A stretch of 64,000 nt of DNA. Source: Clostridia bacterium (lineage in GTDB: Bacteria > Bacillota > Clostridia > Oscillospirales > CAG-272). This document shows positions 10,091 through 62,418 of the stretch, one piece after another (position 1 is the first letter of the stretch; each line of letters opens with the position of its first letter). The notes under the pieces are model-generated. The model was not told the origin of the DNA. It searched no databases and saw only the letters and a list, made by a program, of their open reading frames with translations. The position numbers and the translations under genes were made by a program. The stretch spans positions 1-64,000 of the forward strand of contig JAFSYU010000020.1 in NCBI GenBank assembly GCA_017443595.1. The letters are read 5' to 3'.

Positions 10091-14718
<4,628 letters not shown>

Positions 14719-16498: not shown

Positions 16499-18595
16499 TT
16501 ATCTTACGCTGAAAAGTATGTCGGCGTAGCTCGGGAACGGCCAGTATGATTTAGCCGTGAGCGTTTCCGCCTCATCGCACGCTACGCGCAGCCCGCACAT
16601 TTCGGAAAGCACGTCGTCGCGTATCATAACGGACTCTGCTGTTATATCGTCCGCGTCCTGCAGTTTTATAAGCGCTTTCTGCAGAGCATCCGTCTTTATG
16701 GCTATCGTGTCCGTAAGACCCGACAGCTTCTTTACAAGACCCGTTTCGTATTCGCAGGACAGATTCGGGTCAAGCGCTTTTTTGCTCTGCGCGTCCTTTG
16801 CTATATCCGACGCGAATTTTGCGACAGCCGGCAGGATCTGAGTCTTTGCCATTGATACCATGGTATTTGCCTCTATCGTTACGGTCTTGCAGTAATTTTC
16901 AAGCATTATCTCACAGCGCGACTGCAGTTCCTCAACGGAGAATACCTTGTGCGCGGTAAGCATATCCACGTTTTTCTTGTCAAGCAGATGCGGCATGCAG
17001 TCCGCCGTTGTTCTGTAATTGAGCAGTCCGCGAACTTCCGTCGCTTCCTTTATCCACGCGTCGTCGTAGCCGTTGCCGTTGAATATGATGCGCTTGTGAT
17101 CTTTTATGGTCTTCTTTATCATATCGTGCAGCGCCGTTTCAAAATCTGCCGCGCCTTCAAGTCTGTCCGCGTATATCTTCAGGCTCTCGGCTACCGCGGC
17201 GTTCAGCATTATGTTCGCGCAGGCTATGGAGTTTGAAGAACCGAGCATACGGAACTCGAATTTGTTTCCGGTGAATGCAAACGGGGAAGTTCTGTTTCTG
17301 TCGGTCGTATCGCGGTTGAATTTCGGCAGAACGTCAACGCCGAGCTTCATCTGCGTCTTTTCCGCGCCCTGATACGGCGTGTCGTTTTCTATGGCGTCAA
17401 GCACCGCACCGAGCTCGTCGCCTACGAACATTGAGATGACGGCGGGAGGCGCTTCGTTTGCGCCTAAGCGGTGGTCGTTTCCTGCCGTCGCAATGGAAAT
17501 ACGGAGCAGGTCCTGATAATCGTCAACAGCTTTGATGACCGCGCACAGGAAAAGCAAGAACTGCGCGTTTTCATACGGTGTTTCGCCCGGGGAAAGCAGG
17601 TTCTGTCCCTCGTCCGTGGCGATCGACCAGTTGTTGTGCTTGCCGGAGCCGTTCACGCCCGCGAAAGGCTTTTCGTGAAGCAGACAGACAAGTCCGTGCT
17701 TCTGCGCGACCTTCTGCATGATCTCCATTGTGAGCTGGTTGTGGTCCGTCGCAACGTTTGTTGTCGTATATATCGGCGCAAGCTCGTGCTGAGCCGGAGC
17801 AACTTCGTTATGTTCCGTTTTCGCCATGATGCCGAGCTTCCACAACTCGTCGTTTAATTCTTCCATATAAGCCGCTACTCTCGGTTTGATAGCGCCGAAG
17901 TAGTGGTCGTCCATCTCCTGGCCCTTAGGCGGCTTTGATCCGAACAAGGTTCTGCCGCAGAAACGCAGGTCGGGACGCTGATCGTACATTTCTTTTGTTA
18001 TAAGAAAATATTCCTGTTCCGGTCCGACGGACGAAACGACTCTTTTCGCGGTGTCGTTGCCGAACAGCTTAAGAACGCGCAGCGCCTGCTTGTTAAGCGC
18101 TTCCATTGAGCGAAGCAGCGGAGTCTTCTTGTCAAGCGCGTGGCCGCCGTACGAACAGAACGCGGTGGGGATACATAACGTCTTGCCTTTTATGAACGCG
18201 TAAGACGTCGGGTCCCACGCGGTATAGCCTCTCGCCTCAAACGTTGCGCGAAGACCGCCTGACGGGAAAGATGAAGCGTCCGGTTCGCCTTTTATAAGTT
18301 CCTTACCGGAAAATTCCATTATAACGCTTCCGTCGGGCGACGGGGAGATGAAGCTGTCGTGCTTTTCTGCCGTGATGCCGGTAAGCGGCTGGAACCAGTG
18401 CGTGAAGTGAGTAGCGCCTTTTGAGATCGCCCACTGTTTCATCGCAGCGGCTACGGCGTTGGCTACGCTTATGTCAAGCGTCTTGCCTTCGTCAATAGTC
18501 TGCTTCAGCGAATTATATACCTTAGCCGAAAGCGTCGCTTTCATAACTCTGTCGTCAAATACGTTCTCACCGAAATAATCCGATACGGTTTTCAT
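16499..18595 (-). CDS. glnN: Glutamine synthetase type III
   Basis: About 698 aa starting at [13 protein letters not shown], preceded by an AAAGGAG ribosome-binding site. The listed 18643 start is an upstream in-frame extension. The size and sequence fit GSIII. Confidence 0.85.
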
Positions 18596-18619
18596 TGTTT
18601 TTTTCTCCTTTTTTTGTTT

Positions 18620-18659
18620 GAAAAATGAAGAGGCGCCTTCCACAAATGTGAAAGACGCC
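18620..18659 (-). terminator. Terminator-like hairpin plus U-tract inside the glnN 5' UTR, a putative attenuator
   Basis: On the minus-strand RNA, GGCGUCUUUC-acauuugu-GGAAGGCGCC forms a 10-bp stem with two G·U pairs, followed by UCUUCAUUUUUC. It lies between the promoter and the ribosome-binding site. Confidence 0.35.
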
Positions 18660-18684
18660 TTTGCCTTTTCGTTATTACGGCGGT

Positions 18685-18713
18685 ATTATACTACATAAAA
18701 TCCGATTTGTCAA
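18685..18713 (-). promoter_or_regulatory. Near-consensus sigma-A promoter for the glnN operon
   Basis: On the minus strand, cTTGACAaatcggattttatgtagTATAATacc. The spacer is 17 bp. Confidence 0.6.
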
Positions 18714-18761
18714 GCCCTTTTTGCAATTTTTTTGAAATTTTCCTGCATTTTTTGATTTGGA

Positions 18762-18930
18762 TGTTTTGTTGGGGGTTACCCACCCCTCAGGCGCGTACCG
18801 CGCCAACCCCCAAACCCCCTACCCCTCCGGAACCCCCATTGCTCACTACGTTCGCAACGGGGAACCCCTCGGTCCCTCCCACAGATCAAAGATCTGAGGG
18901 GGCTGCCGAGACAATCGGCTGAGGGTGTGT
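18762..18930 (-). repeat. Copy 1 (inverted orientation) of a mosaic GC-rich intergenic hairpin repeat
   Basis: Contains the reverse complement of the shared core GGGGTTCCCCGTTGCGAACGTAGTGAGCAATGGGGGTTCC, a CCCTCAGATC…CTGAGGG hairpin and a GGGGTGGG…CCCC module. Confidence 0.75.
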
Positions 18931-18980
18931 TTTCGTGCAGAATTCTGAAAAGCAACGCGATGAATATATAAATGCTCACA

Positions 18981-19607
18981 TCAATTATAATTTTGATCAA
19001 TATCTCTTTTTCTGCAAATAACCTCTTCATTTCCCGTTTGTTCGTTTTTTTGAAATGTTACTTGAAGATCAAGATAATTGATATTTGCATAATCTGCGTC
19101 ATCTGATCCGGTATAAATCCGAACTGTGTTTTCATCTGTAAAACCTTCTCTGTCATAAGGTTCCCAGAATATAGCGGAACCACTCGGGTTTTTTATTTGC
19201 ACTAACAGCTGACCGTCTACCTGCTCCGCGTCAAAGTATCTGATAAAAACCGGATCGCCCTCAGCTTCAACTTTACAAACACCGTCCTTGCTTTCAACGT
19301 ATTCTACTTTACAAATATTACCTAAATAAACGGTAATATTCTTGCAGGCCGCAAATTCCTTACTGTATTGATATTTCTGATTTATCATTTTCTCCTCTTT
19401 TCTTTCACCAAACAAAACGCCTATAGGTACAGATAAGATTTCGGCAATTACCGGAAACATCGTAACGTCTGGGTAACCGATCCCGCATTCCCATTTTGAA
19501 ATTGACTGTGCGGAAATACCGAGCTTTTCGGCAAGCGCAGTTTGTGTCAAACCTTTCTCTTTTCTTAATTTTGTAATGATATTGCAAAACTCATTTAGCT
19601 TATACAT
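18981..19607 (-). CDS. XRE-family HTH transcriptional regulator with an uncharacterised C-terminal domain
   Basis: 208 aa. The N-terminal HTH_3 is KGLTQTALAEKLGISAQSISKWECG. Confidence 0.7.
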   Translation of the reverse strand: MYKLNEFCNIITKLRKEKGLTQTALAEKLGISAQSISKWECGIGYPDVTMFPVIAEILSVPIGVLFGERKEEKMINQKYQYSKEFAACKNITVYLGNICKVEYVESKDGVCKVEAEGDPVFIRYFDAEQVDGQLLVQIKNPSGSAIFWEPYDREGFTDENTVRIYTGSDDADYANINYLDLQVTFQKNEQTGNEEVICRKRDIDQNYN

Positions 19608-19689
19608 AGCTTATCCCCTTTCTATAACCAAGTATACCACAAAAACAAAGGACCGTCAATAACTGCTCAGTTGTAAATGATTTTTATAT

Positions 19690-20000
19690 TGTTGCTTTCA
19701 TCATAGAGTTGTGCCGTTAGCCCGATATTTTCCGGGGTTGTTTCGCGATTCCAGGGCGGGCGACCAATGGTCGCCCCTACGAGACGCGCGCTGCCCCCTC
19801 GATTTAAAATCGACGGGAGGGGACAGGGGGGTATGGGGGGGTTCTCGGGCGTAGCCCGAGCAAAGGGGTTCCCCGTAGCGAACATAGTGAGCAATGGGGG
19901 TTCCCGTGAGGGGTGGGAAACCACCCATTTTCGTCGGCTCCGCCGACACCTTTTTTTATTATTTCTTATTTATTCTTTATTATTTATATCGGTCTTCCCG
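19690..20000 (+). repeat. Copy 2 of the mosaic repeat family, with both GC-rich and AT-rich modules
   Basis: Modules are CGACCAATGGTCGCCCCTAC, the core GGGGTTCCCCGTAGCGAACATAGTGAGCAATGGGGGTTCCCG, GGGTGGGAAACCACCC, GTCGGCTCCGCCGAC and an AT-rich tail tttattatttcttatttattctttatt. Confidence 0.75.
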
Positions 20001-25682: not shown

Positions 25683-25979
25683 TCATTCAATACTTAAAAT
25701 ATCGACAAATCCCGTAACGTCAAAGATCTCCATGATCTCGGGTTTTACGTTCGTTATCTTCATCTCTCCCTGCTTGTTCATCACCTTCTGTGCGGCAAGA
25801 AGCACGCGCAGTCCGGCGGAAGATATGTAATCGAGTTTTTCAAAATCAAACGTGAGCCCGCTTATACCGTTGACAGATGTGCGAAGCTCTGCTTCAAGCT
25901 GCGGAGAAGTTGTGGTGTCAAGACGTCCTTCAAGTACGATCGTAAGTTTATCTCCGTTCTGATTTTTGGTGATAGTCAT
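25683..25979 (-). CDS. STAS-domain anti-sigma-factor antagonist (SpoIIAA/RsbV-like)
   Basis: 98 aa, with the signature LDYISSAGLRVLL and a conserved phospho-Ser context. Confidence 0.8.
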   Translation of the reverse strand: MTITKNQNGDKLTIVLEGRLDTTTSPQLEAELRTSVNGISGLTFDFEKLDYISSAGLRVLLAAQKVMNKQGEMKITNVKPEIMEIFDVTGFVDILSIE

Positions 25980-26019
25980 TTTATGTACGTATCCTTTCGG
26001 TTATTGTATTATTGTTTAA

Positions 26020-26087
26020 ACTCTGTCTGCAACGCAGACAGCTCCCTCGGCGAGGGAGCGCTGCTATGCCTCTTTTTTTGTGAGGCG
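26020..26087. terminator. Cluster of three hairpins between the precursor-peptide genes and the STAS gene, probably a partial terminator or attenuator
   Basis: CTGTCTGC-aac-GCAGACAG, CTCCCTCG-GCGAGGGAG and GCCTC-tttttttgt-GAGGC. Confidence 0.45.
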
Positions 26088-26107
26088 GAAAAAGCTGTGT
26101 AAGAAAA

Positions 26108-26335
26108 TTATTTTAAGGTTTTTAAGTTGAATGCGGTTTCGGTTTCTTTTTTCTTTTTCAGCTGTGATCCGGTCATTTCATTGATACTGCTGGTATCCTC
26201 GTTGCTCTCGGTTGACGCGTCCTCGTATCCCAGGGTTACGCCTTTCTTTGAGTTAACCATCGCGCGGCCTCCCGCCACTTCGTTCAACAGGTCGTCGCTC
26301 AGTTCTGCATTTTTAAGATCTTTTTTGTCAGGCAT
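26108..26335 (-). CDS. Double-glycine-leader precursor peptide (paralog 1) with a hydrophilic Ser/Thr/Asp/Glu/Lys-rich core
   Basis: 75 aa. The leader MPDKKDLKNAELSDDLLNEVAGG fits the LSxxELxxVxGG double-glycine motif. A strong ribosome-binding site is present. The 52-aa core contains no Cys. Confidence 0.6.
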   Translation of the reverse strand: MPDKKDLKNAELSDDLLNEVAGGRAMVNSKKGVTLGYEDASTESNEDTSSINEMTGSQLKKKKETETAFNLKTLK

Positions 26336-26372
26336 TGTATTTTCCTCTTTTCTTTTTATTTTTTATTTTAAA

Positions 26373-26600
26373 TTATTTCAGGATCCTAACGTGTAACACG
26401 TTTTCGGTTTCTTTTTTCTTTTTCAGCTGTGATCCGGTCGCTTCATTGATACTGCCGGTATCCTCGCTGCTCTCGGTCGACGCGTCCTCGTATCCCAGGG
26501 TTACGCCTTTCTTTGAGTTCACGGTCGCGCGGCCTCCCGCCGCTCCGTTCAACTGATCGTCGCTCAGTTCTTTTGATCTGTTTTTTTTCTCATCATCCAT
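26373..26600 (-). CDS. Double-glycine-leader precursor peptide (paralog 2, a tandem duplicate)
   Basis: 75 aa. The leader is ELSDDQLNGAAGG, and the core is 80-90% identical to paralog 1. The duplication is visible at the DNA level. Confidence 0.6.
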   Translation of the reverse strand: MDDEKKNRSKELSDDQLNGAAGGRATVNSKKGVTLGYEDASTESSEDTGSINEATGSQLKKKKETENVLHVRILK

Positions 26601-26675
26601 ATCTTTTTTCCTTTCTTATACAGCAGGCTTGAATAGCCGTACAGTCGTTTTATCCCGGTATGTATACGCAATACG

Positions 26676-26984
26676 TCACAGCAGCGGAATGATGCCGTTA
26701 TCTTTCATTTCTTTAAGACAATCCCGGCAATAGCCGTATTCAAGTTCCGAGGAATATTTCTCGGCGTCACAGCGTTTGCATCTTAATATGGCGTCTTTAA
26801 CCTGACGGTGATATCCGCCGCTGATCTTATCAAGCGCCTCTGCCGGCAGTTCGACGCCTTCCTCGTCTGCAAACCTGATAAACTCTTCTTTGGTCTTACA
26901 TTCTTTTGCCTTTTTCTTCTGCTCGTCGGTAAGGGAATCCAGAACACCCTTGAGGGCTTCATTCAGCTTATCGTCCATGATCAC
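26676..26984 (-). CDS. Nif11-type (N11P) leader-peptide precursor with a CxxC-x16-CxxC core
   Basis: 102 aa. The leader MIMDDKLNEALKGVLDSLTDEQ…EEFIRFADEEGVELPAEALDKISGG resembles the Nif11 leader family and ends in GG. The 45-aa core is YHRQVKDAILRCKRCDAEKYSSELEYGYCRDCLKEMKDNGIIPLL. A strong GAGGAG ribosome-binding site is present. Confidence 0.55.
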   Translation of the reverse strand: MIMDDKLNEALKGVLDSLTDEQKKKAKECKTKEEFIRFADEEGVELPAEALDKISGGYHRQVKDAILRCKRCDAEKYSSELEYGYCRDCLKEMKDNGIIPLL

Positions 26985-27051
26985 TTTCTCCTCATAATTT
27001 TCTTAATTTAATTATGTCCGGCGCGGCGCGGGGCGGCTGCTGTATTTCATC

Positions 27052-27531
27052 TTATCCGAGCGCCGTACGCAGAGCGGACAACGCTTTATTGTGCCGTATT
27101 TTTACCATTCCGTAACTGATACCGAGCGTCTCAGCGATCTCTGTCAGCGGCATACGGTCGTAGTAATGAAGAACTATAACGTCTGTAAGCTCATCCGGCA
27201 GGTCCTCAAGCGCCCCGGCAAGCTCACGAAGCATCTCGGCGTTTGTGACCTCGTCTTCGGGTGAGCTGTCGCCCGGCACGTCCTCCGGGATCTCTTCCGT
27301 AGGACGCGCTCTGCGGCAGTAATCTATAACGGTGTTTTTAGTGATCGTATATATCCACGTTCCGACCGACGCTTTTGACGGATCGTAGTCGTCCGCGCAG
27401 CTGAACGCTTTTACAAAAACGTCTTCGCAAAGATCTTCAACGTCACTTTCGTTATAGATACGGGAACGTATGTAGGACGTTACCTTCCCGCGATATTCGG
27501 TATACAACCGTTCTTTTTCATCCGCCGTCAT
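27052..27531 (-). CDS. ECF-type sigma-70 family RNA polymerase sigma factor
   Basis: 159 aa. Region 2 (DLCEDVFVKAF…TWIYTITKNTVIDYCRR) and region 4 (LTEIAETLGISYGMVKIRHNKALSALR) are both recognisable. Confidence 0.8.
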   Translation of the reverse strand: MTADEKERLYTEYRGKVTSYIRSRIYNESDVEDLCEDVFVKAFSCADDYDPSKASVGTWIYTITKNTVIDYCRRARPTEEIPEDVPGDSSPEDEVTNAEMLRELAGALEDLPDELTDVIVLHYYDRMPLTEIAETLGISYGMVKIRHNKALSALRTALG

Positions 27532-27734
27532 ACCGGGGATCCTCCCGGCATTTTTTTCTTTCCGGCTATTTCAGATATCTGTTGAACACCTGCCGCGGAG
27601 ACCGAGTCAAGCTCGTCGTCTGTAAGCTCGCGCTCTTCAACGCGGCGGTGAACGCCGTCTATCACCTTCTGCAGCCGGAGATCGTTTTCAAAGTGCTGAT
27701 AATCAAAGAGGTTTTGTAATTTTGTTTTTGTCAC
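27528..27734 (-). CDS. Small hypothetical protein translationally coupled to the ECF sigma gene
   Basis: 68 aa with a GTG start and a GGAGG ribosome-binding site. Its stop overlaps the sigma-factor start. It carries a leader-like ELTDDELDSVSAAG segment. Confidence 0.4.
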   Translation of the reverse strand: MTKTKLQNLFDYQHFENDLRLQKVIDGVHRRVEERELTDDELDSVSAAGVQQISEIAGKKKMPGGSPV

Positions 27735-27800
27735 TCTTGATCCTCCTTTGCCGCTTTGTCTTACGCCTGTTTATACGCAGAAAAATTCGTTATGGCAGTG

Positions 27801-27866
27801 TTTTTTTCAAATTTTTTTGATTTTTTTCGGATTTTTTCGTTTTTTTCAGTTTTTTTCGTCTTTTTG
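27801..27866. promoter_or_regulatory. Array of seven helically phased T/A-tracts, predicted intrinsically curved DNA, upstream of the sigma/peptide transcription unit
   Basis: T5-7 tracts begin at 27801, 27812, 27821, 27832, 27841, 27851 and 27861, a period of about 10 bp. The array overlaps the last codons of the ABC gene. Confidence 0.5.
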
Positions 27867-30050
27867 AACCGTATCGAGTCTCTGACGCGCTACAAGTTCC
27901 GCAAAGAAGCCTTCCTTTGCTATAAGATCGTCATACGTTCCGTCCTCAACTATTTTGCCGTGATCGAGCACGATTATGCGGTCGCACTGGCGTATAGTTG
28001 AAAGGCGGTGCGCTATGACTATACGCGTGCATTTCATCCTGTCAAGCGCGTCTGAGACCTGCTTCTGAGTTATATTGTCAAGAGCGCTCGTCGCCTCGTC
28101 AAACATAAGTATCCTCGGTTTTGGGGCAACTGCGCGAGCGATAAAGAGCCTCTGCCGCTGTCCGCCGGATATACCGCCCTGTCCCTCTGAGATAAGCGTG
28201 TTCATCCCCATGGGCATAGCGCGTATATCGTCAGCCATACCGGCTATCTCCGCCGCCTCCCACGCGTCGTCAAGCGTCAGCCACGGCGCGGAGATCGTGA
28301 TATTGGAGAAAATATCTCCGGTAAACAGTTTTCCGCTCTGCATTACCGCACCGATCTTACGGCGCAGTGATTTTAAATCGAGCTTTTTGATATCGTGTCC
28401 GTCGTAATACACGGCTCCCTTCTGCGGTGTTTCAAAGCCGAGCATTATCCTCATAAGCGTTGACTTGCCGCAGCCTGTCTTTCCGACTATGGCAACGTAC
28501 TGGCCGGGACGGATCTTCAAAGACAGATCGTCGATGACCGGCGGCATATCGTCGGTATAACGGAAAGTTATATTATTCAGCTCTATCCCTCCGGAAAGAC
28601 GCGTGACCACCTGTTTGTCAAGCGAGATCTCAGGCTCCGCCTCCATTATCGGCTTTGCCATTTCAAGCGCCGGTTTTATCTGCGCAAGTCCCGTTGCGAT
28701 ACCGGCGAGCGCGATAAACGCGCTGTTGACCATACCGTAAGCTGAGTTGAACGCGTAATACTCCGCTACCGAGACGTTTGTCTTTACCGCGATGAAAAAC
28801 ATTGCTATGGTGCCGACAAGCGAAACGGCGAGAGTAATGACGGATGAGATCTTCAGAAACAGCGGCGGATCGTAAAGGAGCTTTGCGTCCTTTGCGTACA
28901 TTTTGCCCCATTTGGCAAACGCTCTCTGCTCCGCGCCCGAAAGCTTTATTTTCTGTATACCGGATATAAGCTGATAACTCATACCCAATTCCTTGCTTTC
29001 GTGCTCCATGCTCTGACGCGTTATCTTCATCTGTATGAAGATCCTGATAACGGTGATCAAAAGCGTTGCAAAAGTGACTATGAGCGCGGGCGCGACGAGC
29101 GCGGGCGCGTATTTGAATATCTGGAAAATATATACTATGGAGAATACCGACGCCATTCCCGTAGTCAGAAACATACTTGCTATCTGGCTGCAAAGTCCGT
29201 TTATGTAACCGGCGCGGTTAGAAAGCTCACCGGCGCTGTAATCCTTGAAGAAATCCGGCGGCAGCGAAAGGATCCGCATCATGGTCGCCGCTTCTACCGA
29301 AAGATTCAGCTTTGTTCCTATGCGCGACGTCAGAAGCGCGCGGACGGACGTAAAGAGAAGAATGCTCAGCGACGCGCTTATCATAAATACAGCCGTGCCG
29401 ATAAGCGCCGAAGCGCTGCCCGACGTTATAACGTACGAAAACAGATAATTGTTGAGCCGCGGTATCAGCATACCTATGCCGGTCACCGCAAGCATTGCAA
29501 GTATAAGCGGAATGATATCCGAAAACGATATCTGCTGGATTATATATTTAAGTAAGCTTCCGACCGTCATTTTTGAGATCGGGAACGGTTTATAGAAAGC
29601 TATTGCTTCCTTTTCTATAATATCCTGATTTTTGCGGTTGATCCGCACCGTTTTTCCGAGCTTCCTGTCATAAAAGCTGTAGCCGTTCAGTCCGGTGGGT
29701 ATCAGAGCGACGACGCTGCCGTCGTCCCGGCGCGTGCCAAGCATCGCTCCTATCGCGTCGCGGTACCAGCCCTTTTCAAGTTCTACGGAGCGGCGCATGA
29801 ATCCCGCGGGACGCAGCAGATATTCAAGCACCTCGTTCATATCAGTGATCGCATCCGGCACTTCCTGCGCTGCAACGTGATAATATTTTAAAATATCTCC
29901 TATCGCGTCAGCCGTGATCTGTCTGTCGTCATTGAGCGATTTGCTCATCCGGCGGCCCATAACGGCGTCCGCCATCTGCTCAAACGACTCTTCAAACACC
30001 GCCTGATCCGCGTCTTTTCTTTTGCGTATCTGTTCATCAAACCAGCCCAT
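27846..30050 (-). CDS. NHLM-type bacteriocin ABC transporter, ATP-binding/permease subunit, with a degenerate non-catalytic N-terminal domain
   Basis: 734 aa. An N-terminal domain of about 160 aa lacking the catalytic Cys is followed by a six-helix permease and an ABC ATPase with Walker A GKTGCGKST and signature LSGGQRQR. Confidence 0.7.
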   Translation of the reverse strand: MGWFDEQIRKRKDADQAVFEESFEQMADAVMGRRMSKSLNDDRQITADAIGDILKYYHVAAQEVPDAITDMNEVLEYLLRPAGFMRRSVELEKGWYRDAIGAMLGTRRDDGSVVALIPTGLNGYSFYDRKLGKTVRINRKNQDIIEKEAIAFYKPFPISKMTVGSLLKYIIQQISFSDIIPLILAMLAVTGIGMLIPRLNNYLFSYVITSGSASALIGTAVFMISASLSILLFTSVRALLTSRIGTKLNLSVEAATMMRILSLPPDFFKDYSAGELSNRAGYINGLCSQIASMFLTTGMASVFSIVYIFQIFKYAPALVAPALIVTFATLLITVIRIFIQMKITRQSMEHESKELGMSYQLISGIQKIKLSGAEQRAFAKWGKMYAKDAKLLYDPPLFLKISSVITLAVSLVGTIAMFFIAVKTNVSVAEYYAFNSAYGMVNSAFIALAGIATGLAQIKPALEMAKPIMEAEPEISLDKQVVTRLSGGIELNNITFRYTDDMPPVIDDLSLKIRPGQYVAIVGKTGCGKSTLMRIMLGFETPQKGAVYYDGHDIKKLDLKSLRRKIGAVMQSGKLFTGDIFSNITISAPWLTLDDAWEAAEIAGMADDIRAMPMGMNTLISEGQGGISGGQRQRLFIARAVAPKPRILMFDEATSALDNITQKQVSDALDRMKCTRIVIAHRLSTIRQCDRIIVLDHGKIVEDGTYDDLIAKEGFFAELVARQRLDTVQKDEKN

Positions 30051-30062
30051 TACGTCACCCCC

Positions 30063-32258
30063 TTATTCCGACGTCACGAGCCTTTTGTACGCGCCGTCAA
30101 GAGCCATAAGCTGTTCGTGCGTACCGCGCTCCACGACCTTGCCGTGATCTAAAACGACTATCTCGTCACAGTCACGTATAGTTGAGAGCCTGTGAGCTAT
30201 AACGATGCAGGTTATGCCGCGGTTCTTAATGGAATTCACCACTTCGTACTCTGTTTTGGCGTCAAGCGCGCTTGTCGCCTCGTCAAGTATGATTACAGTG
30301 GGATCCTGCGCAAGAACGCGCGCGATCTCTATACGCTGACGCTGACCGCCGGAGAAATCCTTGCCGCCTTCCGTCAGTACGTACTGGTATCCGCCCTCAC
30401 GCTGTATTATATCCTCATGTATCTGAGCGTCGCGCGCGGCAAGAACTACCTCAAAATCTTCTATTGAATTGTCCCACATTTTTATATTGTTGGATATCGT
30501 GTCTTCAAAAAGGATGATATCCTGATCCACAACGGCTACCGAACCGGTGAACACGCTGCGGTCTATCCGGGAGATCGTTTTGCCGTCAAAGAGTATTTCC
30601 CCACTCCACGGCTGATAAAGTCCGGATATGAGTTTTGATAACGTGGATTTTCCGCAGCCGGACATTCCGACGAACGCCACGCGCTGCCCCTGTTTAAGGT
30701 CAAGGCTGAAATCCTCTATGAGCGGCGCTTCAAGCCGCGAATATCCGAACGTCACGTTCTTCATCTGAAGCGAACCGGAAAGCTTGTCAAAGCCGTCTTC
30801 TTCTCCGTCTGCGCCGTGCTCCTTACTGTTGTGTGCAAATACGGGATCCTCCGGATATTCCATAACGTCTTCTATACGCTCCATTGACGTTCTCATCTCC
30901 TGCATCGTCTGTCCGGCGGAGATAAGATCTGCCGCGGGAGCTATGAACGAGGCGAGAAATCCCTGGAACGCGAATATCATACCGGGTGTAAACTTGCCGA
31001 TCATCACAAGCCATACGCCGAGGATAAGGACCGCCGTGTTCATTATGCCGGAGATCAAAGACGGGATCATTCCGAGATACTGATTTATACGTTCAAAACG
31101 TACTTTCTGCGTATTGACAGACGCCTGGTATCCGGACCATTTTTCAAAATAGCCGTTTTCCGCGCCGCTTGCCTTTATAGTCTCTATCATTTCCACGCCG
31201 GATACGGTGGCGGCAACGAGCTTACCGCTGTCGCGCATCATAACGCGCGTGATGTTCACACGTTTTTTAGATATGTACCGCGAGATCAAAAGCTGAAAGA
31301 TAACGGACGCGACGCCTACGAGCGTGAGTATCCATGAATATCTGATCATGACCGCGAGATAGAAGATCATCATCACCGTGTTCAGTGCGAGCGGTGCGAG
31401 AGTGTTCACTATCTCACCGGCGATATCGGCGTTCAGTTCTTTGCGCTGCTGTATATCGCCCGCCATACGCTGTGAGAAAAACTCCATGGGCAGACGGAGC
31501 ACTTTCCACATATACGTGCTGTTTCCGACGACCGCCATTTTGCCGTCGAGCTTGAGAGAGTATATCGCGTTTATCCAGTTCGCAATAAGCTGAATTACCG
31601 CTATTATGCTCAGACCGACAAAAAACGGTATGAACCAGCCCGGCTGATTCTGCGTCAGAAGTTCGTCTAAGAAAACGCGCGAAAATCCGGCTGATACTAT
31701 TCCTACGAGAGTTGAGATCACGGAGGTTATTATAACAAACGCCACAGCGCCGCCGGCGCCGCGCAGTCTCTTTTTCGTAAAGCTCATTATGCGCTTAGGC
31801 TCTCCGCCCGGCTCAAACTCTTCTCCGGGTTCTATCATAAGGCAGATGCCGGTAAAGCTCTCGTCAAATTTTTCAAGCGTTACGGTATAATCTCCCCTTG
31901 CCGGATCGTTCAAATACACCTTGTTGCCGCGGAATCCGTCGCATACTACAAAGTGGTTGAATTCCCAGTGGATAATGCACGGGAACGTTCCTTTTGCACG
32001 GAGCGTCTCCGGCTCAAAACGGTATCCCTTAGCCGTAAAGCCGTAGTTTCTCGCCGCTTTGAGGATATTGCCCGCCTTGCTGCCGTCACGCGAGACTCCG
32101 CAGTCACGTCTGACCTGTTCAAGCGGCACCCATTTGTTGTAATACGCCATGACCATACACAGGCAGGCGGCGCCGCATTCAAGCGCCTCCATCTGCATGA
32201 TCACAGGTACTTTAGCCCTGCCTTTTGTGACAGGCTGATTTATATTCTTTTTGCTCAT
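30063..32258 (-). CDS. Peptidase-containing ABC transporter (PCAT) with C39 double-glycine peptidase, permease and ATPase domains
   Basis: 731 aa. The C39 motif is QMEALECGAACLCMVMAYY. A permease and an ABC ATPase (GMSGCGKST, LSGGQRQR) follow. Confidence 0.85.
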   Translation of the reverse strand: MSKKNINQPVTKGRAKVPVIMQMEALECGAACLCMVMAYYNKWVPLEQVRRDCGVSRDGSKAGNILKAARNYGFTAKGYRFEPETLRAKGTFPCIIHWEFNHFVVCDGFRGNKVYLNDPARGDYTVTLEKFDESFTGICLMIEPGEEFEPGGEPKRIMSFTKKRLRGAGGAVAFVIITSVISTLVGIVSAGFSRVFLDELLTQNQPGWFIPFFVGLSIIAVIQLIANWINAIYSLKLDGKMAVVGNSTYMWKVLRLPMEFFSQRMAGDIQQRKELNADIAGEIVNTLAPLALNTVMMIFYLAVMIRYSWILTLVGVASVIFQLLISRYISKKRVNITRVMMRDSGKLVAATVSGVEMIETIKASGAENGYFEKWSGYQASVNTQKVRFERINQYLGMIPSLISGIMNTAVLILGVWLVMIGKFTPGMIFAFQGFLASFIAPAADLISAGQTMQEMRTSMERIEDVMEYPEDPVFAHNSKEHGADGEEDGFDKLSGSLQMKNVTFGYSRLEAPLIEDFSLDLKQGQRVAFVGMSGCGKSTLSKLISGLYQPWSGEILFDGKTISRIDRSVFTGSVAVVDQDIILFEDTISNNIKMWDNSIEDFEVVLAARDAQIHEDIIQREGGYQYVLTEGGKDFSGGQRQRIEIARVLAQDPTVIILDEATSALDAKTEYEVVNSIKNRGITCIVIAHRLSTIRDCDEIVVLDHGKVVERGTHEQLMALDGAYKRLVTSE

Positions 32259-32271
32259 AATATATAAACCG

Positions 32272-32532
32272 TCAATTTATTACGTACGTGATAGGAGCGA
32301 CCTCTTTTACGCTGCCGTCGGCATCTTTTACCTCAACTCTGCCGAAAATGCTCCACGTCAGCATACCGATAAGCAGTATCAAAAGCGCAAGAAGCACGAT
32401 CCATACAGAAGGAGAAGTGACTCGGATATAGTCGTTAAGCGACTCCGGGCTTGTTACCTGTTTGATGCTCTTTTCTCTGAAAATGCTGTTTTTTGACTGA
32501 TCTTCCGACATTTTATATCCCTCCCAAATCAT
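32272..32532 (-). pseudogene. HlyD-family NHLM secretion protein reduced to its N-terminal membrane-anchor fragment
   Basis: 86 aa (…SPESLNDYIRVTSPSVWIVLLALLILLIGMLTWSIFGRV…) matches only the N-terminal ~80 aa of periplasmic adaptor proteins that normally run to about 400 aa. Confidence 0.5.
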
Positions 32533-33217
32533 TTTTTACAAAAGCGTAGAATTTTGCGCGTATATCCTTTGCCTGATCACGGCGTAAAAGATACGTTTTA
32601 CCGTCTCTGCTCATACAGTCTTTATATGTCATTCTTGATATATGGTTCATATTAAGCGTGACGCCCTTTTTGATCTGAAGAAAGGAATCGTCAAGCAGCT
32701 CGTCTATCTCTTTAAACGGTTTCCTTATGGAATACACGGTATTGTTGCTGCAGGTGATCTCCGTGTTGTGGCCGTGTCCCTCCACGCGTATGATCTCATC
32801 CTGATAAAGTACGTTGATGACCCGGTCTATCCGTACCGTCAGCGTATGACGCGGTTCCGTCTTTGTCTGCAGGCGGCGGAAGACCTCAACTATGTCTTCC
32901 TGCGACACGGGCTTGACAAGATAATGCACGGCGTCTACGGAAAAAGCATCCACCGCGTGTTCCCGGCTGCTTGTGATAAAAGCCACCGGCGTGTGCGGAC
33001 AGACAGCCTTCATCTGTTTGGCGATCTCTATACCGTTTTCCTCTTTCATGTAAACGTCGCAAAGGAGCAGATCGTAAACGGCGCCGTCCCCGGCTGCTTT
33101 CAGCAGGTCCCTGCCTTCCGAAAACCGGTCAATACGGTAATTGCCGGAAATATTGAAGATCATTTCCTGCAGATTGTATACTTCTTCATTGTCATCATTC
33201 AAAATGGCAATATGCAA
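32513..33217 (-). CDS. LytTR-family response regulator (REC + LytTR DNA-binding domain)
   Basis: 234 aa. The receiver domain has the LLLCDVYM phospho-acceptor-Asp context, and a C-terminal LytTR domain follows. No cognate histidine kinase lies in the window. Confidence 0.8.
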   Translation of the reverse strand: MHIAILNDDNEEVYNLQEMIFNISGNYRIDRFSEGRDLLKAAGDGAVYDLLLCDVYMKEENGIEIAKQMKAVCPHTPVAFITSSREHAVDAFSVDAVHYLVKPVSQEDIVEVFRRLQTKTEPRHTLTVRIDRVINVLYQDEIIRVEGHGHNTEITCSNNTVYSIRKPFKEIDELLDDSFLQIKKGVTLNMNHISRMTYKDCMSRDGKTYLLRRDQAKDIRAKFYAFVKNDLGGI

Positions 33218-36445: not shown

Positions 36446-37200
36446 TTATCCCTTTGCAGAAATTCAAACACGCGGTTTTTGTAATCCGGCGCCTCGTCAA
36501 ACACGGTGTGGCCGTACGGCGGCCCGTACATATAAAGCTCACAGCCGATTTTCATCGCTATATCGACGGACGCTTCCGGCGGCAGTATTTTGTCTTCCGA
36601 GCTGCCTAAAACGAGCGTAGGGCATTTTATCTCGCCTAACCTGTCGGATACGTCAAACCCGTCGGACGCGTTGTATAACAGCTCAAACCGTTTCAGTTCT
36701 TCTTCGCTGAGTTCTATATGCGGTACTTTCATCCCTGCCGCCTGCGCGACGCCGTCGGAATAAAGCACAGCCATAAAATTATTTATTTTTTCTTTTATAT
36801 CGCCGCCCGCAAACGCCGGCCCGGATATCATTTTAGGCGCGGTGGAACATAAAACGAGTTTTTCGACAAGGTCGGGATGATCGAGTGCAAACTGCTGCGC
36901 CGCCATTCCGCCCTGCGACACGCCGAAAATGCACGCTTTTTCGATCCCGAGTGCGTTCATCACAGCCGCGGTATCCTCCGCCATATCTTTTATGCTGTAG
37001 CCGTCAGACAAATTAAGCCGTCTGTCAAGCAGATAAACGGTATAGTCGTTTGTAAATACGGAATAAGCCGCCGCTATCGACGCCTCGTATACAAGCACGC
37101 TTTTTACGCTCAGCCCCGGCAGGATGACAAGCGCCTTATCGCCCGTGCCGAATTTTATATACTGCAGATGCAGTTCGTTTGTTTTAACGGTATGGATCAT
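36442..37200 (-). CDS. Alpha/beta-hydrolase fold protein
   Basis: 252 aa with the nucleophile elbow GVSQGG. Confidence 0.65.
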   Translation of the reverse strand: MIHTVKTNELHLQYIKFGTGDKALVILPGLSVKSVLVYEASIAAAYSVFTNDYTVYLLDRRLNLSDGYSIKDMAEDTAAVMNALGIEKACIFGVSQGGMAAQQFALDHPDLVEKLVLCSTAPKMISGPAFAGGDIKEKINNFMAVLYSDGVAQAAGMKVPHIELSEEELKRFELLYNASDGFDVSDRLGEIKCPTLVLGSSEDKILPPEASVDIAMKIGCELYMYGPPYGHTVFDEAPDYKNRVFEFLQRDK

Positions 37201-37299
37201 AACAGCTCCGTATGGATTTGATAACCGAATTATATACTATTTGCGCGTAAATATCAATATGTTTTATGAAAATTATTATGCAGAAAATAATAAGCGCGC

Positions 37300-37650
37300 G
37301 GGTGTGAGGGGGGACACACCGCGCGCGGCTAAAGCCGCAAAAGCCCCGAGTATTCGGGGGGAGGCGGGGGTTTGGGGGTGGATAGGGGGGGTGGCCCGGG
37401 GTTCCCCAAAAACGAGGAACGAGTTTTTGGGGGTTCACGGGCGGGGGAATCCACAAAGCGCCGGGTGAGGGGTTCCCAGTTGCGAACAGAGTGAGCAACG
37501 GGGGTTCCCGGAACGGCGCACAGATCGTCGCGACAGCGACACCGATTTTTATTATTTATTATTTCTTCTTTATTCTTTATTCTTTAAGACGGACGACCAA
37601 TGGTCGCCCCTACATTGATTTATTTAAAACGGCGGAGACCAAGCCCCGCC
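37300..37650 (+). repeat. Copy 3 of the mosaic repeat family
   Basis: The core GGGGTTCCCAGTTGCGAACAGAGTGAGCAACGGGGGTTCCCG, GTCGCGACAGCGAC, the AT-rich module and the CGACCAATGGTCGCCCCTAC module are present in a different order from copy 2. Confidence 0.75.
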
Positions 37651-37666
37651 GTGAATTCATTTATTT

Positions 37667-39076
37667 TTATTTCGCCGTGTAGAACGCCACGACGGCTTTA
37701 TGCATATTGTAAACGTCAAATTTTGATACCACCTCGTACGGCGCGTGCATCGATATTACCGGAACGCCGACGTCGACTGTGTCTATGTTCTTTTCCGATA
37801 TAAACTTTGCGACCGTTCCGCCGCCGCCCTGATCTACCTTGCCGAGCTCGGCCGTCTGCCATACGACGCCCGCGTCGTCAAAAATCTTTCTTATCCTGCC
37901 TACGTATTCGCCCGACGCGTCGTTGGTGCTCGATTTGCCGCCGCCGCCCGTGTATTTGCAGAGCGCAATGCCGCAGTTGATTATTGCCGAGTTGTTTATC
38001 TCGTAAGCTCCGGCAAAGTTCGGATCGTACGCCGCGGAAACGTCCGCGGACAGACAAACTGAATTCGCGCGGACGATGCGCTCGCTTTTGCCTAATGCTT
38101 CGCAAATATCGGCTATTATATCGCAGAACGCGCTTGTTTTCATACCGGTGTTGCCGTCAGATCCGGTCTCTTCCTTATCCGCAAGTATGCTCATAACGGT
38201 CTTTTTCGGTTTATTAAGCGACAGTATCGCCGTGATCTCGGGATACGCGCAGACTTTGTCGTCGTGTCCGTACGCGGCGATCAGCGATCTGTCAAGACCG
38301 ATGTCGCGCGCTTTCATAGCTGGAACGGCGCAGAGCTCGGCGGACTGGAAATCAGCCTCGGTCATGCCGTATTTTTCGTTAAGTAACCTGAGCAGATTCA
38401 GCTTTATCGCCTCCGGCGTTTCATTGTCGAAAGGCATGCTGCCGGATAACAGATTGAGCTGTTCGCCCTCTATAGCCGCGCCGAGATTCTTTGCGTACTG
38501 ATCGCGCGCGAGGTGCGGCAGTATGTCGTTTACGTAGAACAGCGGATCAGATTCGTCCTCGCCCAGTATGACGTCAACTGTCTTGCTGTCCGCAAGCGTC
38601 ACGGTGCCGTGAAGCGCAAGCGGTATTGCCGTCCACTGATATTTTTTAATGCCGCCGTAGTAGTGCGTCTTCATAAACGCCATTCCGCCCGCCTCGTATA
38701 CGGGATGAGCTTTAAGGTCAAGACGCGGAGAGTCTATATGCGCCGCCGTCAGAGCGATGCCTTTTTCTATATCCTCGCTTCCGATTATAAAGAAATATAC
38801 GCTTTTGCCGCGGTTGTTATAGTAGTATTTTTCCCCGGCTTTTACTTTTTTGCCGAATTTGTATTCTTTAAAGCCTTTTTTCTTTGCAAGAGCTATGGAG
38901 TAAGCGGACGCGTCTCTTTCCGTCTTTGCGTTGTCCAAGAATTTCTTGTAATCCTCGCAGTACGCAAACACGGCTTCTTTTTCATCCGGGCATTTTTCAA
39001 AAGCCGTTTTCTTTTTATAGACCAGCTTTTCCTTTAAAAGTTCGCCCTCTGATTTTTTCTTCTCGTTCTTTGGCAT
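37667..39076 (-). CDS. M18-family aminopeptidase
   Basis: 469 aa. The HIDSPRLDLK motif and overall similarity point to aspartyl/M18 aminopeptidases. Confidence 0.7.
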   Translation of the reverse strand: MPKNEKKKSEGELLKEKLVYKKKTAFEKCPDEKEAVFAYCEDYKKFLDNAKTERDASAYSIALAKKKGFKEYKFGKKVKAGEKYYYNNRGKSVYFFIIGSEDIEKGIALTAAHIDSPRLDLKAHPVYEAGGMAFMKTHYYGGIKKYQWTAIPLALHGTVTLADSKTVDVILGEDESDPLFYVNDILPHLARDQYAKNLGAAIEGEQLNLLSGSMPFDNETPEAIKLNLLRLLNEKYGMTEADFQSAELCAVPAMKARDIGLDRSLIAAYGHDDKVCAYPEITAILSLNKPKKTVMSILADKEETGSDGNTGMKTSAFCDIIADICEALGKSERIVRANSVCLSADVSAAYDPNFAGAYEINNSAIINCGIALCKYTGGGGKSSTNDASGEYVGRIRKIFDDAGVVWQTAELGKVDQGGGGTVAKFISEKNIDTVDVGVPVISMHAPYEVVSKFDVYNMHKAVVAFYTAK

Positions 39077-58700: not shown

Positions 58701-59295
58701 TTACACGGTAAAATTCCTTGACTATGACGGAAAAGTTCTGAGCGAGCAAAAATATCATTACGGTGATAAAATAAATACGCCTGAAAAAGATCCTACCCGC
58801 AATGCGGACGAATACGGCACGTATACGTTCAAAGGATGGGATAAAAAGGTCGAAAGCTGCACCGGCAGCGAAGACTTTACGGCGGTATATGATATCAAAT
58901 ATACTGATTACACTGTAAAATTCCTTGATTATGACGGCAAAGTTCTAAGTGAGAAAACTTATCACTACGATGATAAGATAACAGCTCCCGAAGATCCCGC
59001 ACGTGAAGCAGACGAAGAATTTACGTATGAGTTCACCGGCTGGGATAAAGAAGTTACCGTCTGCAAGGGCAGCGAGGAATTCACGGCCGTTTACGGCAGT
59101 ACGCCCGCCAAGACAGTCATACCGGGAGATATGAACGGTGACGGAGAAGCAGACAATAAGGACGTTGTTTCACTGTTCAGATACGTTTCCGGCACGGAAA
59201 AACTCGAAGATGAATCTATCTACGATTTCAACGGCGATAAAGAAGTAAACAACAAAGACGTTGTTGAACTGTTCAGATATCTCAGTGCAAAATAA
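55705..59295 (+). CDS. Large secreted lipoprotein with a central glycoside-hydrolase-like (DUF4091-like) domain, five Listeria/Bacteroides-type repeats and a C-terminal type-I dockerin
   Basis: 1196 aa. A signal peptide with lipobox (MLASCAA) is present. The C-terminal dockerin duplicated segment is DMNGDGEADNKDVVSLFRYVSG…DFNGDKEVNNKDVVELFRYLS. Confidence 0.75.
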   Translation: MKKLISVLLLMCMLASCAASVTVATGDTETKPVTLSFDSNSLSYFGSANDTNVSIVDDETDSGHSVKFELKSASNDPYVFFNVSSYVSKLGLTSSFPAANEIKYIILKIKQEACSNNIFRIYFSTSVSAGPNEQFTATSSFDVGLEVWQYVVFDMSKSTGWTGKISNLRLDWITSGNSDGESLCINEIIFAKNDDEAAPYIKAAEGTGEDTHPMTSAQQQIADYILANVKDLAPEISNDKITAAYEDSSIALWFDHSYKNTPAEDVTSTGLNSYQIKLAKNEIEGCHLMLASTADKTGLTLEISDFVNGNGDVLTKEVCYGYYFDDVDGYTVADPIPLLEHEFDLTANRSKMFIIKVKSTAKTPSGQYAATAVLKDADGREIKKANVYAYVWNFALPETSSCKTLTDLGWWCIYEGHKLFAGDDSLIYSKYYEYLLENKMCAYTLPYSNDGKYDDDRVEKYLNDPRMTAYTLTWKTEFSESMITKAYNRVSKNQTWLDKAYFYPVDEPMTKDKLDEVISDATRIKSIFGDSYKLITPMHWNSLYDKEYKVDAFEYVKGYVNVWCPHTFFFNTYADKQANPALTYRNYKKLEDNIGTFPARMAEEQANGNEVWWYVTRFPQDPEIALSMNDKSVRHRILFWQQKLYNVDGFLYYAANDWYHIEGTEEHRYMWDKKHEVDTGTINPFNFYGNGVLVYSGAGLQEYLDRYSEGDYGAVGYYGPVGSLRLESVRDGIEDYDYFTLLDQKYGEGTSDVIIKMITTSLGNYNLDEELFARLRTILGNLIASDSITLPKPECTVKFADYDGTVLSEKTYNYGDKLTAPTGLTREADAVGSYVFRTWDIGYPDVCTEDATYTAVYNVTYNNYTVKFLNYDGKLLSTKTYHYGDKISTPRTPTRKADEYGKYTFKAWNKEVSTCTGDEEFTAVYDIAYTDYTVKFLDYDGTVLSEQKYHYDDKINAPEDPTRKADNVYTYTFKGWDKEVANCKGNEEFTAVYDPAYIDYTVKFLDYDGKVLSEQKYHYGDKINTPEKDPTRNADEYGTYTFKGWDKKVESCTGSEDFTAVYDIKYTDYTVKFLDYDGKVLSEKTYHYDDKITAPEDPAREADEEFTYEFTGWDKEVTVCKGSEEFTAVYGSTPAKTVIPGDMNGDGEADNKDVVSLFRYVSGTEKLEDESIYDFNGDKEVNNKDVVELFRYLSAK
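58080..59100 (+). repeat. Five tandem coding repeats of about 189 bp (~63 aa each) inside the dockerin protein gene
   Basis: The unit YTVKFLDYDGKVLSEQKYHYGDKINTPEDPTRKADEYGTYTFKGWDKEV..C.G.EEFTAVYD recurs five times, with near-identical DNA segments. Confidence 0.8.
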
Positions 59296-62167: not shown

Positions 62168-62181
62168 TATAAAAAGTTTAA

Positions 62182-62205
62182 AAGCATCCGTTTTTGCGGA
62201 TGCTT
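62182..62205. terminator. Terminator hairpin, copy A
   Basis: AAGCATCCG-tttttg-CGGATGCTT, preceded by an A-run. Confidence 0.55.
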
Positions 62206-62387: not shown

Positions 62388-62418
62388 AAGCATCCGTTTT
62401 TGCGGATGCTTTTTTATT
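62388..62418. terminator. Terminator hairpin, copy B, an identical 24-nt hairpin
   Basis: AAGCATCCG-tttttg-CGGATGCTT followed by TTTTTTATT. Confidence 0.6.

Follow-up and report, generated by a model that had tools for sequence, protein, structure and literature searches.

What are the short, GC-rich blocks that lie between the genes of an otherwise ordinary chromosomal stretch of a rumen clostridium, and how did they come to be there? The stretch in question, 64 kb of contig JAFSYU010000020.1 (the window), carries housekeeping genes for glutamine synthetase III, CTP synthase, RF-1, Sua5 and the DNA polymerase III delta subunit as well as a bacteriocin-type ABC/C39 locus, and two ENA metagenome scaffolds are identical to it across 14 kb. 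An earlier description made from the letters alone (the sequence-only reading) had recognized four copies of a modular hairpin repeat with a shared core of about 40 bp and no transposase among them, and had compared the repeat with repetitive extragenic palindromes (REPs), the bacterial interspersed mosaic elements (BIMEs) formed by them, and miniature inverted-repeat transposable elements (MITEs). According to our analysis, the blocks are probably mosaics resembling BIMEs and composed of short REP-type repeats that form single-strand hairpins, with a REP-associated tyrosine transposase (RAYT) of related genomes as the likely mobilising enzyme.

Direct reading and pattern searches both gave four occurrences of a core of about 42 nt in the window, and shuffled windows contained no match to the pattern. 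A covariance model of the family recovered these four cores and added a fifth, variant hairpin in block 3 (37392-37445, E=7e-6). The blocks, referred to as clusters 1 to 4, and their cores are located as follows.

18762 to 18930, minus strand: cluster 1, a mosaic of hairpin modules, GC 62.7%, z=-3.7 when folded as single-strand DNA, located between the XRE stop (18981) and the glutamine synthetase III promoter (18713-18685)
18827 to 18868, minus strand: core copy 1, GGGGTT-CCCCGTTGC-GAAC GTA GTGA-GCAATGGGG-GTTCCGG, 69.9 bits, E=7e-15
18981 to 19607, minus strand: XRE/HTH_3 gene, context between the inverted clusters 1 and 2, outside the repeat
19735 to 19990, plus strand: cluster 2, GC 64.4%, 82-89% identical to about 12 copies at other loci, between the terminator of the SpoIIE-type upstream gene (20033-20013) and the XRE promoter (19659-19631); its modules follow in the order REP hairpin, G-run, hairpin, core, two hairpins, AT-rich tail
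19865 to 19906, plus strand: core copy 2, 73.3 bits
37289 to 37625, plus strand: cluster 3, at the junction of the M18 aminopeptidase and alpha/beta-hydrolase genes, fold z=-6.0
37398 to 37439, plus strand: variant ('type 2') core, 32.3 bits, E=7e-6
37469 to 37510, plus strand: core copy 3, at the tip of a host hairpin GCGCCG...CGGCGC (37458 to 37519)
63178 to 63450, plus strand: cluster 4, GC 64.8%, fold z=-3.2, occupying almost all intergenic DNA from the SIS-domain gene (stop 63468) to the YoaP-like gene (start 63166)
63338 to 63380, plus strand: core copy 4, with a 4-nt variable loop centre, 66.2 bits

As had been described, all copies lie between genes and the blocks are more GC-rich than their surroundings (62.7-65.8% versus 47.8% for the window). 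Copies 1 and 2 are mutually inverted, with arms of 48 nt that are 90% complementary, and bracket the 208-aa HTH_3/XRE gene. That these two copies flank the XRE gene was thus correctly seen, but its placement at the edge of a peptide island is loose, as the island, which is the bacteriocin-like locus at about 25.7-33.2 kb, begins about 6 kb from copy 2.

Read on the G-rich strand, the core has the form GGGG-TT-CCCCGTTGC-GAAC-N2-4-G(T/A)GA-GCAATGGGG-G-TTC(C/A)CG and belongs to a unit of about 47 nt, laid out as (R)TA-GGGG-TT, the successive hairpin segments CCCCG NNGC, GA AC-N2-4-G(T/A) GA and GCNN T GGGG, and G-TTC(C/A)CG-TA. When 60 copies were aligned with MAFFT without regard to structure, pairing in the 9-bp stem reached 98.5%; two of its pairs show compensatory changes (UA44/AU12/CG2 and UA43/CG14/AU1), and the fifth pair is a G·T wobble retained in 48/60 copies. 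A second alignment, of 104 distinct metagenome copies, was fitted to the covariance model and thus leans towards structure; here the stem is 94.8% paired, compared to at most 56% with slid partners, with covarying pairs AU45/UA40/CG17 and CG62/UA39 and the wobble (G·U) in 76/104 copies. Since a G·T wobble becomes an A·C mismatch on the opposite strand, it is the G-rich strand that folds. The loop has invariant ends, GAAC...GNGA, and a free centre. Judged by this covariation, the core qualifies as a strand-specific hairpin under selection. Variant inner hairpins sit in a GGGGTTCCCC...GGGGGTTC frame and keep the wobble and the tandem G·A/A·G step: the fifth copy of the window has the frame GGGGTTCCCC...GGGGGTTCACG with the inner hairpin AAAAACGAG-GAA-CGAGTTTTT, the family form of which is CCCCGAAAACGAG-GWA-CGAGTTTTTGGGG, and a further variant reads CCCCGCCGC-GAAAA-GCGGTGGGG. 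Two candidate outer helices were discarded, one (columns 5-6/51-52) being only 46.7% paired and the other (GGG/CCC, columns 8-10/47-49) 85% paired without any compensatory change.

The accessory modules named in the sequence-only reading were, without exception, located in the blocks, and the 'CCCCTAC' hairpins among them are, on the opposite strand, GTAGGGG followed by a stem-loop. Over 1.2 Mb of loci, 272 of 305 GTAGGGG sites precede a hairpin of at least 5 bp, and in the window all five sites (5/5) fall within the four blocks. Several stem classes occur: GTAGGGG-CGACC-ATT-GGTCG with the compensatory stem variants CGATC/GATCG and CGAGC/GCTCG, GTAGGGG-AGGGG-TYT-CCCCT, and GTAGGGG-TCGGCG..CGACGA. 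The mosaics combine two sorts of unit, these GTAG-headed REPs, whose stems of 5-9 bp vary in sequence and are read on the C-rich strand, and the core on the G-rich strand. The main REP superfamily is defined by a GTAG head followed by a 6-9-bp stem in which G·T pairs are allowed (PMC3733652), and such a head plus hairpin is what RAYTs recognise in other bacteria (PDB 4ER8; PMC3733652). The modules found in the window are listed below.

19761 to 19780, minus strand: GTAG-headed REP, GTAGGGG-CGACC-ATT-GGTCG, the commonest REP class of the family; CGACCAATGGTCGCCCCTAC module
37594 to 37613, minus strand: GTAG-headed REP, GTAGGGG-CGACC-ATT-GGTCG; second copy of the CGACCAATGGTCGCCCCTAC module
63189 to 63211, minus strand: GTAG-headed REP, GTAGGGG-TCGGCGCCTCGACGAC, third commonest class; GTCG..GCCGACCCCTAC module
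63428 to 63448, minus strand: GTAG-headed REP, GTAGGGG-TCGGC-GCA-GCCGAC; second copy of the GTCG..GCCGACCCCTAC module
18807 to 18837, minus strand: G-run module matching a G-quadruplex motif (GGGGTAGGGGGTTTGGGGG), with a GTAGGGG head on the G-rich strand
19815 to 19841, 37356 to 37391 and 63303 to 63329, all plus strand, and 18807 to 18837, minus strand: G-quadruplex motifs
19910 to 19926 and 63384 to 63398: GGGGTGGG-N-CCACCC module
63286 to 63306, and inverted at 18874 to 18900: CCCTCAGAT..CTGAGGG module
19951 to 19990 and 37545 to 37583: AT-rich tail

AT-rich tails with a 7-mer periodicity often bound the blocks, with TTATTCT/TTAATTC on the 3' side and, in L088 (883-1280), the complement on the 5' side; in this they are reminiscent of the A/T runs that, according to PMC3337134, surround REP doublets in Pseudomonas.

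The family extends far beyond the window. An exact-pattern scan of 185,579 species genomes gave 46 loci, many of them at contig ends and all in two Clostridiales metagenome-assembled genomes (MAGs), Tb.RUG.108 and UBA1248, and at least 120 further loci were found in rumen-metagenome contigs (the JAEEG project and JGI contigs with Ga... identifiers). With the covariance model, 189 copies were counted in 0.77 Mb of fetched sequence, and the cores stand in 178 distinct flanking contexts, these numbers being counts over the fetched loci rather than totals per genome. As the repeats of the window match those of other loci and the flanks do not, we are dealing with a dispersed family and not with a duplicated larger segment. 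Neither of the two circumstances named beforehand as fatal to a repeat family, i.e. restriction of the core to the four places or such a duplication, was thus found; the core occurs hundreds of times elsewhere. No core match was obtained in a pattern scan of the IMG/VR viral contigs, nor any match in plasmid and phage records by BLAST of cluster 2, and with Rfam 15 the window gave no match at gathering score and, in the block regions, only two matches at chance level (E=0.2-0.8). The family is spread through the intergenic DNA of a group of uncultured rumen Clostridia, where its recurrent neighbours are ECF sigma factors, XRE-TPR regulators, dockerin/CotH proteins, ABC transporters and aminotransferases. 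XRE-type regulators adjoin blocks in L024 and L033, too.

In order to find a transposase, we used IS200, IS608 and 4ER8 query sequences verified against the PDB, the E. coli RAYT query being identical to chain A of 4ER8. The statement that no transposase accompanies the window copies was borne out: a six-frame phmmer search of the whole 64 kb gave no Y1/RAYT match, and Pfam scans of 32 open reading frames (ORFs), together with the listed domains of the genes at 10.5-24.6 kb, gave no transposase or integrase, these Pfam scans leaving aside the initial ~10 kb and several short ORFs. With the same queries, no Y1/RAYT was detected in the first 46 loci; a weak Y1 match in L041 was rejected as an electron-transfer flavoprotein. 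The metagenome contig L088, which bears the family, encodes a Y1 transposase, and with this protein as query a homolog missed by the first search was found in one of the 46 loci, L027 (360-956) of MAG UBA1248. It is an intact RAYT of 198 aa, whose match to the NCBIfam family 'REP-associated tyrosine transposase' (E=4e-16) falls below the cut-off of that family and whose HUH and Tyr motifs align with those of E. coli TnpA-REP (PDB 4ER8). Homologs of this protein number more than 1,300, mostly of 166-175 aa and from MAGs of Clostridia/Oscillospiraceae, and some are named RayT at their source. MAG UBA1248 carries the core in at least nine loci, and two GTAGGGGAGGGG..CCCCTCCC REPs lie upstream of its RAYT gene (258-281 and 312-336) with three more inside it, so that the RAYT and adjacent cognate REPs are present in one genome; REPs of this class are also intergenic and host cores there. 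No IS200-like gene was found in the 1.2 Mb of loci. A Y1-HUH transposase, for which a search elsewhere in the genome had been suggested, thus exists in a MAG carrying the family and, in addition, on another scaffold of the window's own assembly, where scaffold_142 (the window being scaffold_257; tetranucleotide r=0.98 between the two) bears a RAYT disrupted by a core. GTAG-headed hairpins, wide dispersal and a RAYT in related genomes together support the REP/BIME-like modular family suggested at the outset.

Every clostridial RAYT gene examined contains two identical 24-nt GTAG-headed REPs, inverted, in frame, about 180-200 nt apart and placed around the HUH motif. Examples of such pairs are given here.

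10127 to 10150, plus strand, and 10285 to 10308, minus strand, of L175: in-gene REP pair
3130 and 3332 of L171: in-gene REP pair
3130 and 3332 of L169: in-gene REP pair
531 and 748 of L027: in-gene REP pair

The pair encodes 'VGEGSPLP'/'GRGDPSPT' in one subfamily and 'VGRGLAPA'/'AGASPRPT' in the other, and these two types of motif co-vary, with 0 cross-combinations in 181 homologs. Within the REP segments, synonymous third positions are identical at 13/13 sites, compared to about 53% elsewhere in the gene.

The rarA-RAYT locus further provides a filled and an empty site for a single unit. The RAYT gene is intact in L169, L171 and L173 (proteins P0121 and P0242) and split into ORFs of 106 and 64 aa in L088, L170, L174 and L177, the split form being represented by 21 database sequences (90% cluster). 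Over 2 kb, L171 and L088 share 93.5% identity; inside the RAYT gene a single gap separates them, which is 47 nt long and corresponds to the core. The empty site reads ...ACGGCGGGAGC followed directly by AAGCCCCCGCCCTAC... (short form of the junction, GGCGGGAGC and AAGCCCCCGCCCTAC), and the filled site reads ...ACGGCGGGAGT, the inserted ATAGGGGTTCCCCGTTGCGAACATAGTGAGCAATGGGGGTTCACGTA, i.e. ATAGGGG...TTCACGTA, and again AAGCCCCCGCCCTAC.... The insert is located in the loop of a REP hairpin within the RAYT coding sequence, where it introduces a frameshift and a stop codon. Translational bypass of the insert in the manner of phage T4 gene 60 was rejected, since a GUA-to-GUA hop gives the wrong frame; as the insert is moreover closed by TAG and TAA in both relevant frames, the RAYT is read as disrupted. 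The check for target-site duplications recommended in the sequence-only reading was negative at this filled/empty site. Core flanks of the type 'GGGATA...GGGATA' and 'GTAGTA...GTAGTA' were likewise dismissed as such duplications and represent tandem duplications of the unit, as seen in L022, L026 and L007. Insertion into hairpin loops is not restricted to the RAYT gene: cores are found at the tips of at least 15 unrelated host stems, and stems of at least 6 bp enclose cores in 53 contexts, compared to about 26 in the shuffled control. In the window, GCGCCG..[core]..CGGCGC of cluster 3 is an example. The filled and empty RAYT sites directly indicate that the core can insert as a discrete unit.

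Comparison of close relatives reveals a turnover of whole blocks. The M18/hydrolase junction of the window spans 466 nt, in which block 3 is accompanied by a terminator-like hairpin and a promoter-like site. L178 and L179, with an M18 protein that shares 89% identity with that of the window, have no space between the aminopeptidase and hydrolase genes, which overlap by 4 nt, and in L180 (93% identical) a different mosaic of 431 nt is found at this place. The lineage of L178 is not naive, as this locus bears members of the family elsewhere. Similarly, a convergent intergenic region of about 90 nt in L171 measures about 400 nt in L088. The gene overlap in the relatives reads ATGA (L178:4340-4480 versus window 37130-37740), the promoter at the junction of the window is near-consensus (TTGATA-17-TATAAT, 37257-37229), and the insertion bearing block 3 coincides with the division of one operon into two transcription units. 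Some support was also obtained for the idea that the repeats mark recombination or island boundaries: the window and a contig of Tb.RUG.108 (L042:2900-4698 versus window 18545-20000) are 98% identical up to base 18758, just before cluster 1 begins at 18762, and beyond this break L042 has different repeat blocks, a different HTH-TPR regulator gene and different genes further on, although mis-assembly may account for the break. That clusters 1 and 2 and the XRE gene form a mobile cassette is at most a possibility: L042 has another HTH gene and other blocks at the same flank, its right flank differs as well, and a metagenome mis-join may be involved.

From these data and by analogy with other bacteria, we infer that the RAYT would be the enzyme moving these repeats and that its substrate would be single-stranded DNA rather than RNA. 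In such a mechanism, the hairpins would form on single-stranded DNA, for instance at replication forks; a RAYT of the Y1/HUH type, one per genome, would recognise head plus hairpin and then cut and rejoin the strand, and the units would be copied into new sites without target duplication. The core would often enter the loop of a pre-existing hairpin, and such nesting would build up the mosaics. A bolder version, which we regard as possible but rather doubtful, takes the core as a 'parasite of a parasite' that targets REP loops including that of the in-frame REP of the RAYT and can thereby switch off the enzyme of the family, and takes the clostridial RAYTs as a new arrangement in which an inverted pair of cognate REPs (a REPIN) is part of the reading frame of the enzyme itself and encloses the HUH motif.

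As to the class of the blocks, the accessory modules show the palindrome with a 5' GTAG-type head that characterizes REPs, and the core does so in part. High copy number and an extragenic position after genes were found as well: 32 cores lie between tandem, 16 between convergent and 3 between divergent genes, and REPs are mostly found between unidirectional and convergent genes (PMC3733652). A BIME in the strict sense was not recovered, since REP orientation is mostly uniform per block and order and spacing vary between copies; in cluster 4, three GTAG REPs are on the minus and the core is on the plus strand. Inverted pairs of identical REPs were seen only inside the RAYT genes, the intergenic blocks not being resolved into doublets.

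Several points weigh against the assignment to a REP/RAYT system. The blocks are without the regular alternating orientation of E. coli BIMEs and are thus BIME-like, not strict BIMEs. The core is only in part a textbook GTAG REP, i.e. it has the palindrome with covariation and partly the head: about a third of the cores (60/178) begin with (G/A)TAGGGG, and others have CGA, AAA or GCC in place of G/ATA. The link between RAYT and repeats is itself an inferred one, and PMC5581495 places one RAYT group in Clostridia without linking it to abundant repeats. The window yielded no RAYT, and the one in its probable genome is broken, so that present-day mobility there would need another copy or enzyme; the assignment of scaffold_142 to this genome is itself no more than suggestive, based as it is on shared assembly and similar composition. 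The retained G·T wobbles are also expected from a function at the RNA level. Finally, the 47-nt insertion is accompanied by a C>T change at the junction, and as a second GGCGGG..[core]..CCCGCC copy exists elsewhere, the gain could be due to gene conversion from a core-bearing REP.

The last point leads to the main rival, which is kept alive by the junction substitution and by possible donor copies: spread without a transposase, by template switching or slippage between hairpins at replication plus gene conversion or homologous recombination, with the RAYT gene as just one more site containing a REP-like palindrome. The tandem duplications of the core and the shuffling of modules without any single fixed element are what such a process would leave behind, the REP stems flanking the 47-nt insert recur elsewhere with a core inside and could have served as donor, and the family is abundant in the probable genome of the window even though the RAYT there is disrupted. 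However, entry into at least 15 host hairpins with unrelated stems speaks for repeated de novo insertion and not for conversion between homologous copies, the boundaries of the 47-nt unit are sharp, the GTAG head plus hairpin is the very target of RAYTs in other bacteria, and REPs of the same class lie in and beside the RAYT gene. We therefore consider spread without the enzyme unlikely.

A second rival holds that the blocks are structural elements selected by the host, i.e. RNA or DNA hairpins or G-quadruplexes acting as insulators or terminators, as stabilisers of mRNA 3' ends or as binding sites of proteins such as gyrase or nucleoid proteins, so that copy number would reflect usefulness. 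The blocks fold strongly (z=-2.3 to -6.0), the wobbles are kept, and canonical G-quadruplex motifs number only four in 64 kb, one per block on the G-rich strand and adjoining the core, where 0.08 per window would be expected from a first-order Markov simulation. Several blocks end in a hairpin plus T-rich tail scoring as terminator-like, the blocks are downstream of genes and rare between divergent promoters, and such secondary roles are known for E. coli REPs (PMC2817692). Against such a role, the cores between tandem genes show no bias in orientation relative to transcription (17 sense, 15 antisense), and clusters 1-3 are placed between a terminator upstream and a promoter downstream that belong to the flanking genes: cluster 1 precedes a perfect sigma-70-type promoter belonging to the glutamine synthetase gene, cluster 2 stands between the terminator of the gene before it and the XRE promoter, and cluster 3 before the promoter of the next gene. 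This lack of bias and the location in largely untranscribed gaps argue against a role inside neighbouring mRNAs and weaken the suggestion of the sequence-only reading that the repeats may act as RNA structures. In addition, close relatives have the M18/hydrolase junction empty or with a different mosaic, one core copy destroys a gene, and there is no Rfam match. A host-selected structural role, like a MITE origin, fits poorly, and we hold it to be quite unlikely. A MITE, i.e. a deletion derivative of a DDE insertion sequence moved in trans by its transposase, would also be small, non-coding, multi-copy and intergenic, and many contigs break at this repeat, but a MITE is highly improbable here, as the 47-nt unit has no terminal inverted repeats and ends in direct GGGGTTC(C)CCGT repeats, its gain at the one clean filled/empty site went without target-site duplication, and no DDE transposase, or any other mobility gene, recurs beside the repeats in 1.2 Mb of loci.

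Other features of the window deserve brief mention. The bacteriocin-like locus (25683-33217) comprises a STAS protein, a sigma factor, two ABC transporters, one of them with a C39 peptidase domain, and a LytTR response regulator, and a pair of 202-nt direct repeats (26105-26571, 88% identical) within it may hold small peptide genes. An ORF of 1196 aa (55705-59295) contains five tandem units of about 205 nt (58083-59091, 65-78% identical), followed by two dockerin-like 56-nt repeats (59128-59279); homologs of its product adjoin blocks at other loci, and in a related protein CotH, RCC1 and dockerin domains are present. Between the genes at 60881-62167 and 62417-63166, a pair of 49-nt inverted repeats (62180-62413, 73% complementary) with AAAAGCATCCGTTTTTGCGGATGCTT hairpins looks like back-to-back terminators.

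To our knowledge, what has been established on REP/RAYT systems comes almost entirely from Proteobacteria, and we know of no case in which the movement of a single REP was directly seen. The kind of system, REP plus RAYT, is already known. New are the host lineage, the nesting of a GGGG-framed 47-nt hairpin in REP loops, the insertion of a single unit resolved to the base pair, the disruption of a RAYT by the core and the in-frame inverted REP pair in clostridial RAYT genes. The family thereby supplies natural filled and empty sites resolved to single base pairs, and its 47-nt unit is well defined and has a covarying stem. Together with the intact and disrupted forms of the candidate transposase, which come from genomes of about 93% identity, this is material for testing REP mobility by biochemistry and population genetics. 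Should the in-frame REP pair be functional, a domesticated transposase would here be coupled to its repeats in a new way. The repeats also matter for the binning and comparison of rumen MAGs, as they break metagenome assemblies, with many contigs ending in them, and mark junctions at which gene order or operon structure differs between close relatives.

Among known repeats, the BOX elements of Streptococcus pneumoniae are modular, shuffled hairpin sub-units in a Firmicute, without a GTAG head or a linked RAYT, and the Rickettsia palindromic elements, of 100-150 bp, are tolerated in frame within protein genes. The present family resembles the former in its shuffled hairpin modules and the latter in its in-frame palindromes, and has sequence similarity to neither. 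The enzymes of IS200/IS605 insertion sequences are of the Y1/HUH type, recognise imperfect DNA hairpins in a strand-specific manner and insert without target duplication. The clostridial RAYT belongs to the same Y1/HUH fold family, and the units described here differ in being 20-47 nt long, in having no transposase gene inside and in not being the ends of an insertion sequence. IS1397 and ISKpn1 insert into the loops of REP palindromes. The core shares this target, but is a 47-nt non-coding hairpin and not an IS3-family element with a transposase. Both the use of REPs as targets of insertion sequences and the Rickettsia palindromic elements are mentioned in PMC3733652.

With the GTAG superfamily of that paper (Di Nocera et al. 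2013), the family has in common the terminal GTAG, the 6-9-bp stem and several loop formats; some families there are described as 'inserted within small palindromes' and some REPs as intragenic. The 47-nt core with its 11-nt conserved loop and its frame of GGGGTTC direct repeats has no counterpart in it. PMC3733652 does not mention Clostridia or Firmicutes (0 occurrences), and in the literature consulted neither a REP population of Clostridia nor an in-frame REP pair in RAYT genes is described. The REP/BIME/REPIN systems with RAYTs of E. coli, Pseudomonas and Stenotrophomonas are, according to PMC2817692, PMC3116915 and PMC3733652, short GTAG-headed imperfect palindromes in hundreds of copies that form extragenic mosaics, lie mostly after genes, fall into several stem classes per genome and go along with a single-copy Y1/HUH gene with adjacent cognate REPs, all of which is found here as well. 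In contrast to these proteobacterial systems, the host of the present family is a group of Gram-positive rumen Clostridia, the head is GTAGGGG, REPs do not form regular alternating pairs, the core is nested in REP loops as a second hairpin of larger size, and the RAYT has an inverted REP pair in its reading frame instead of flanking REPs only and is itself disrupted by a core in part of the lineage.

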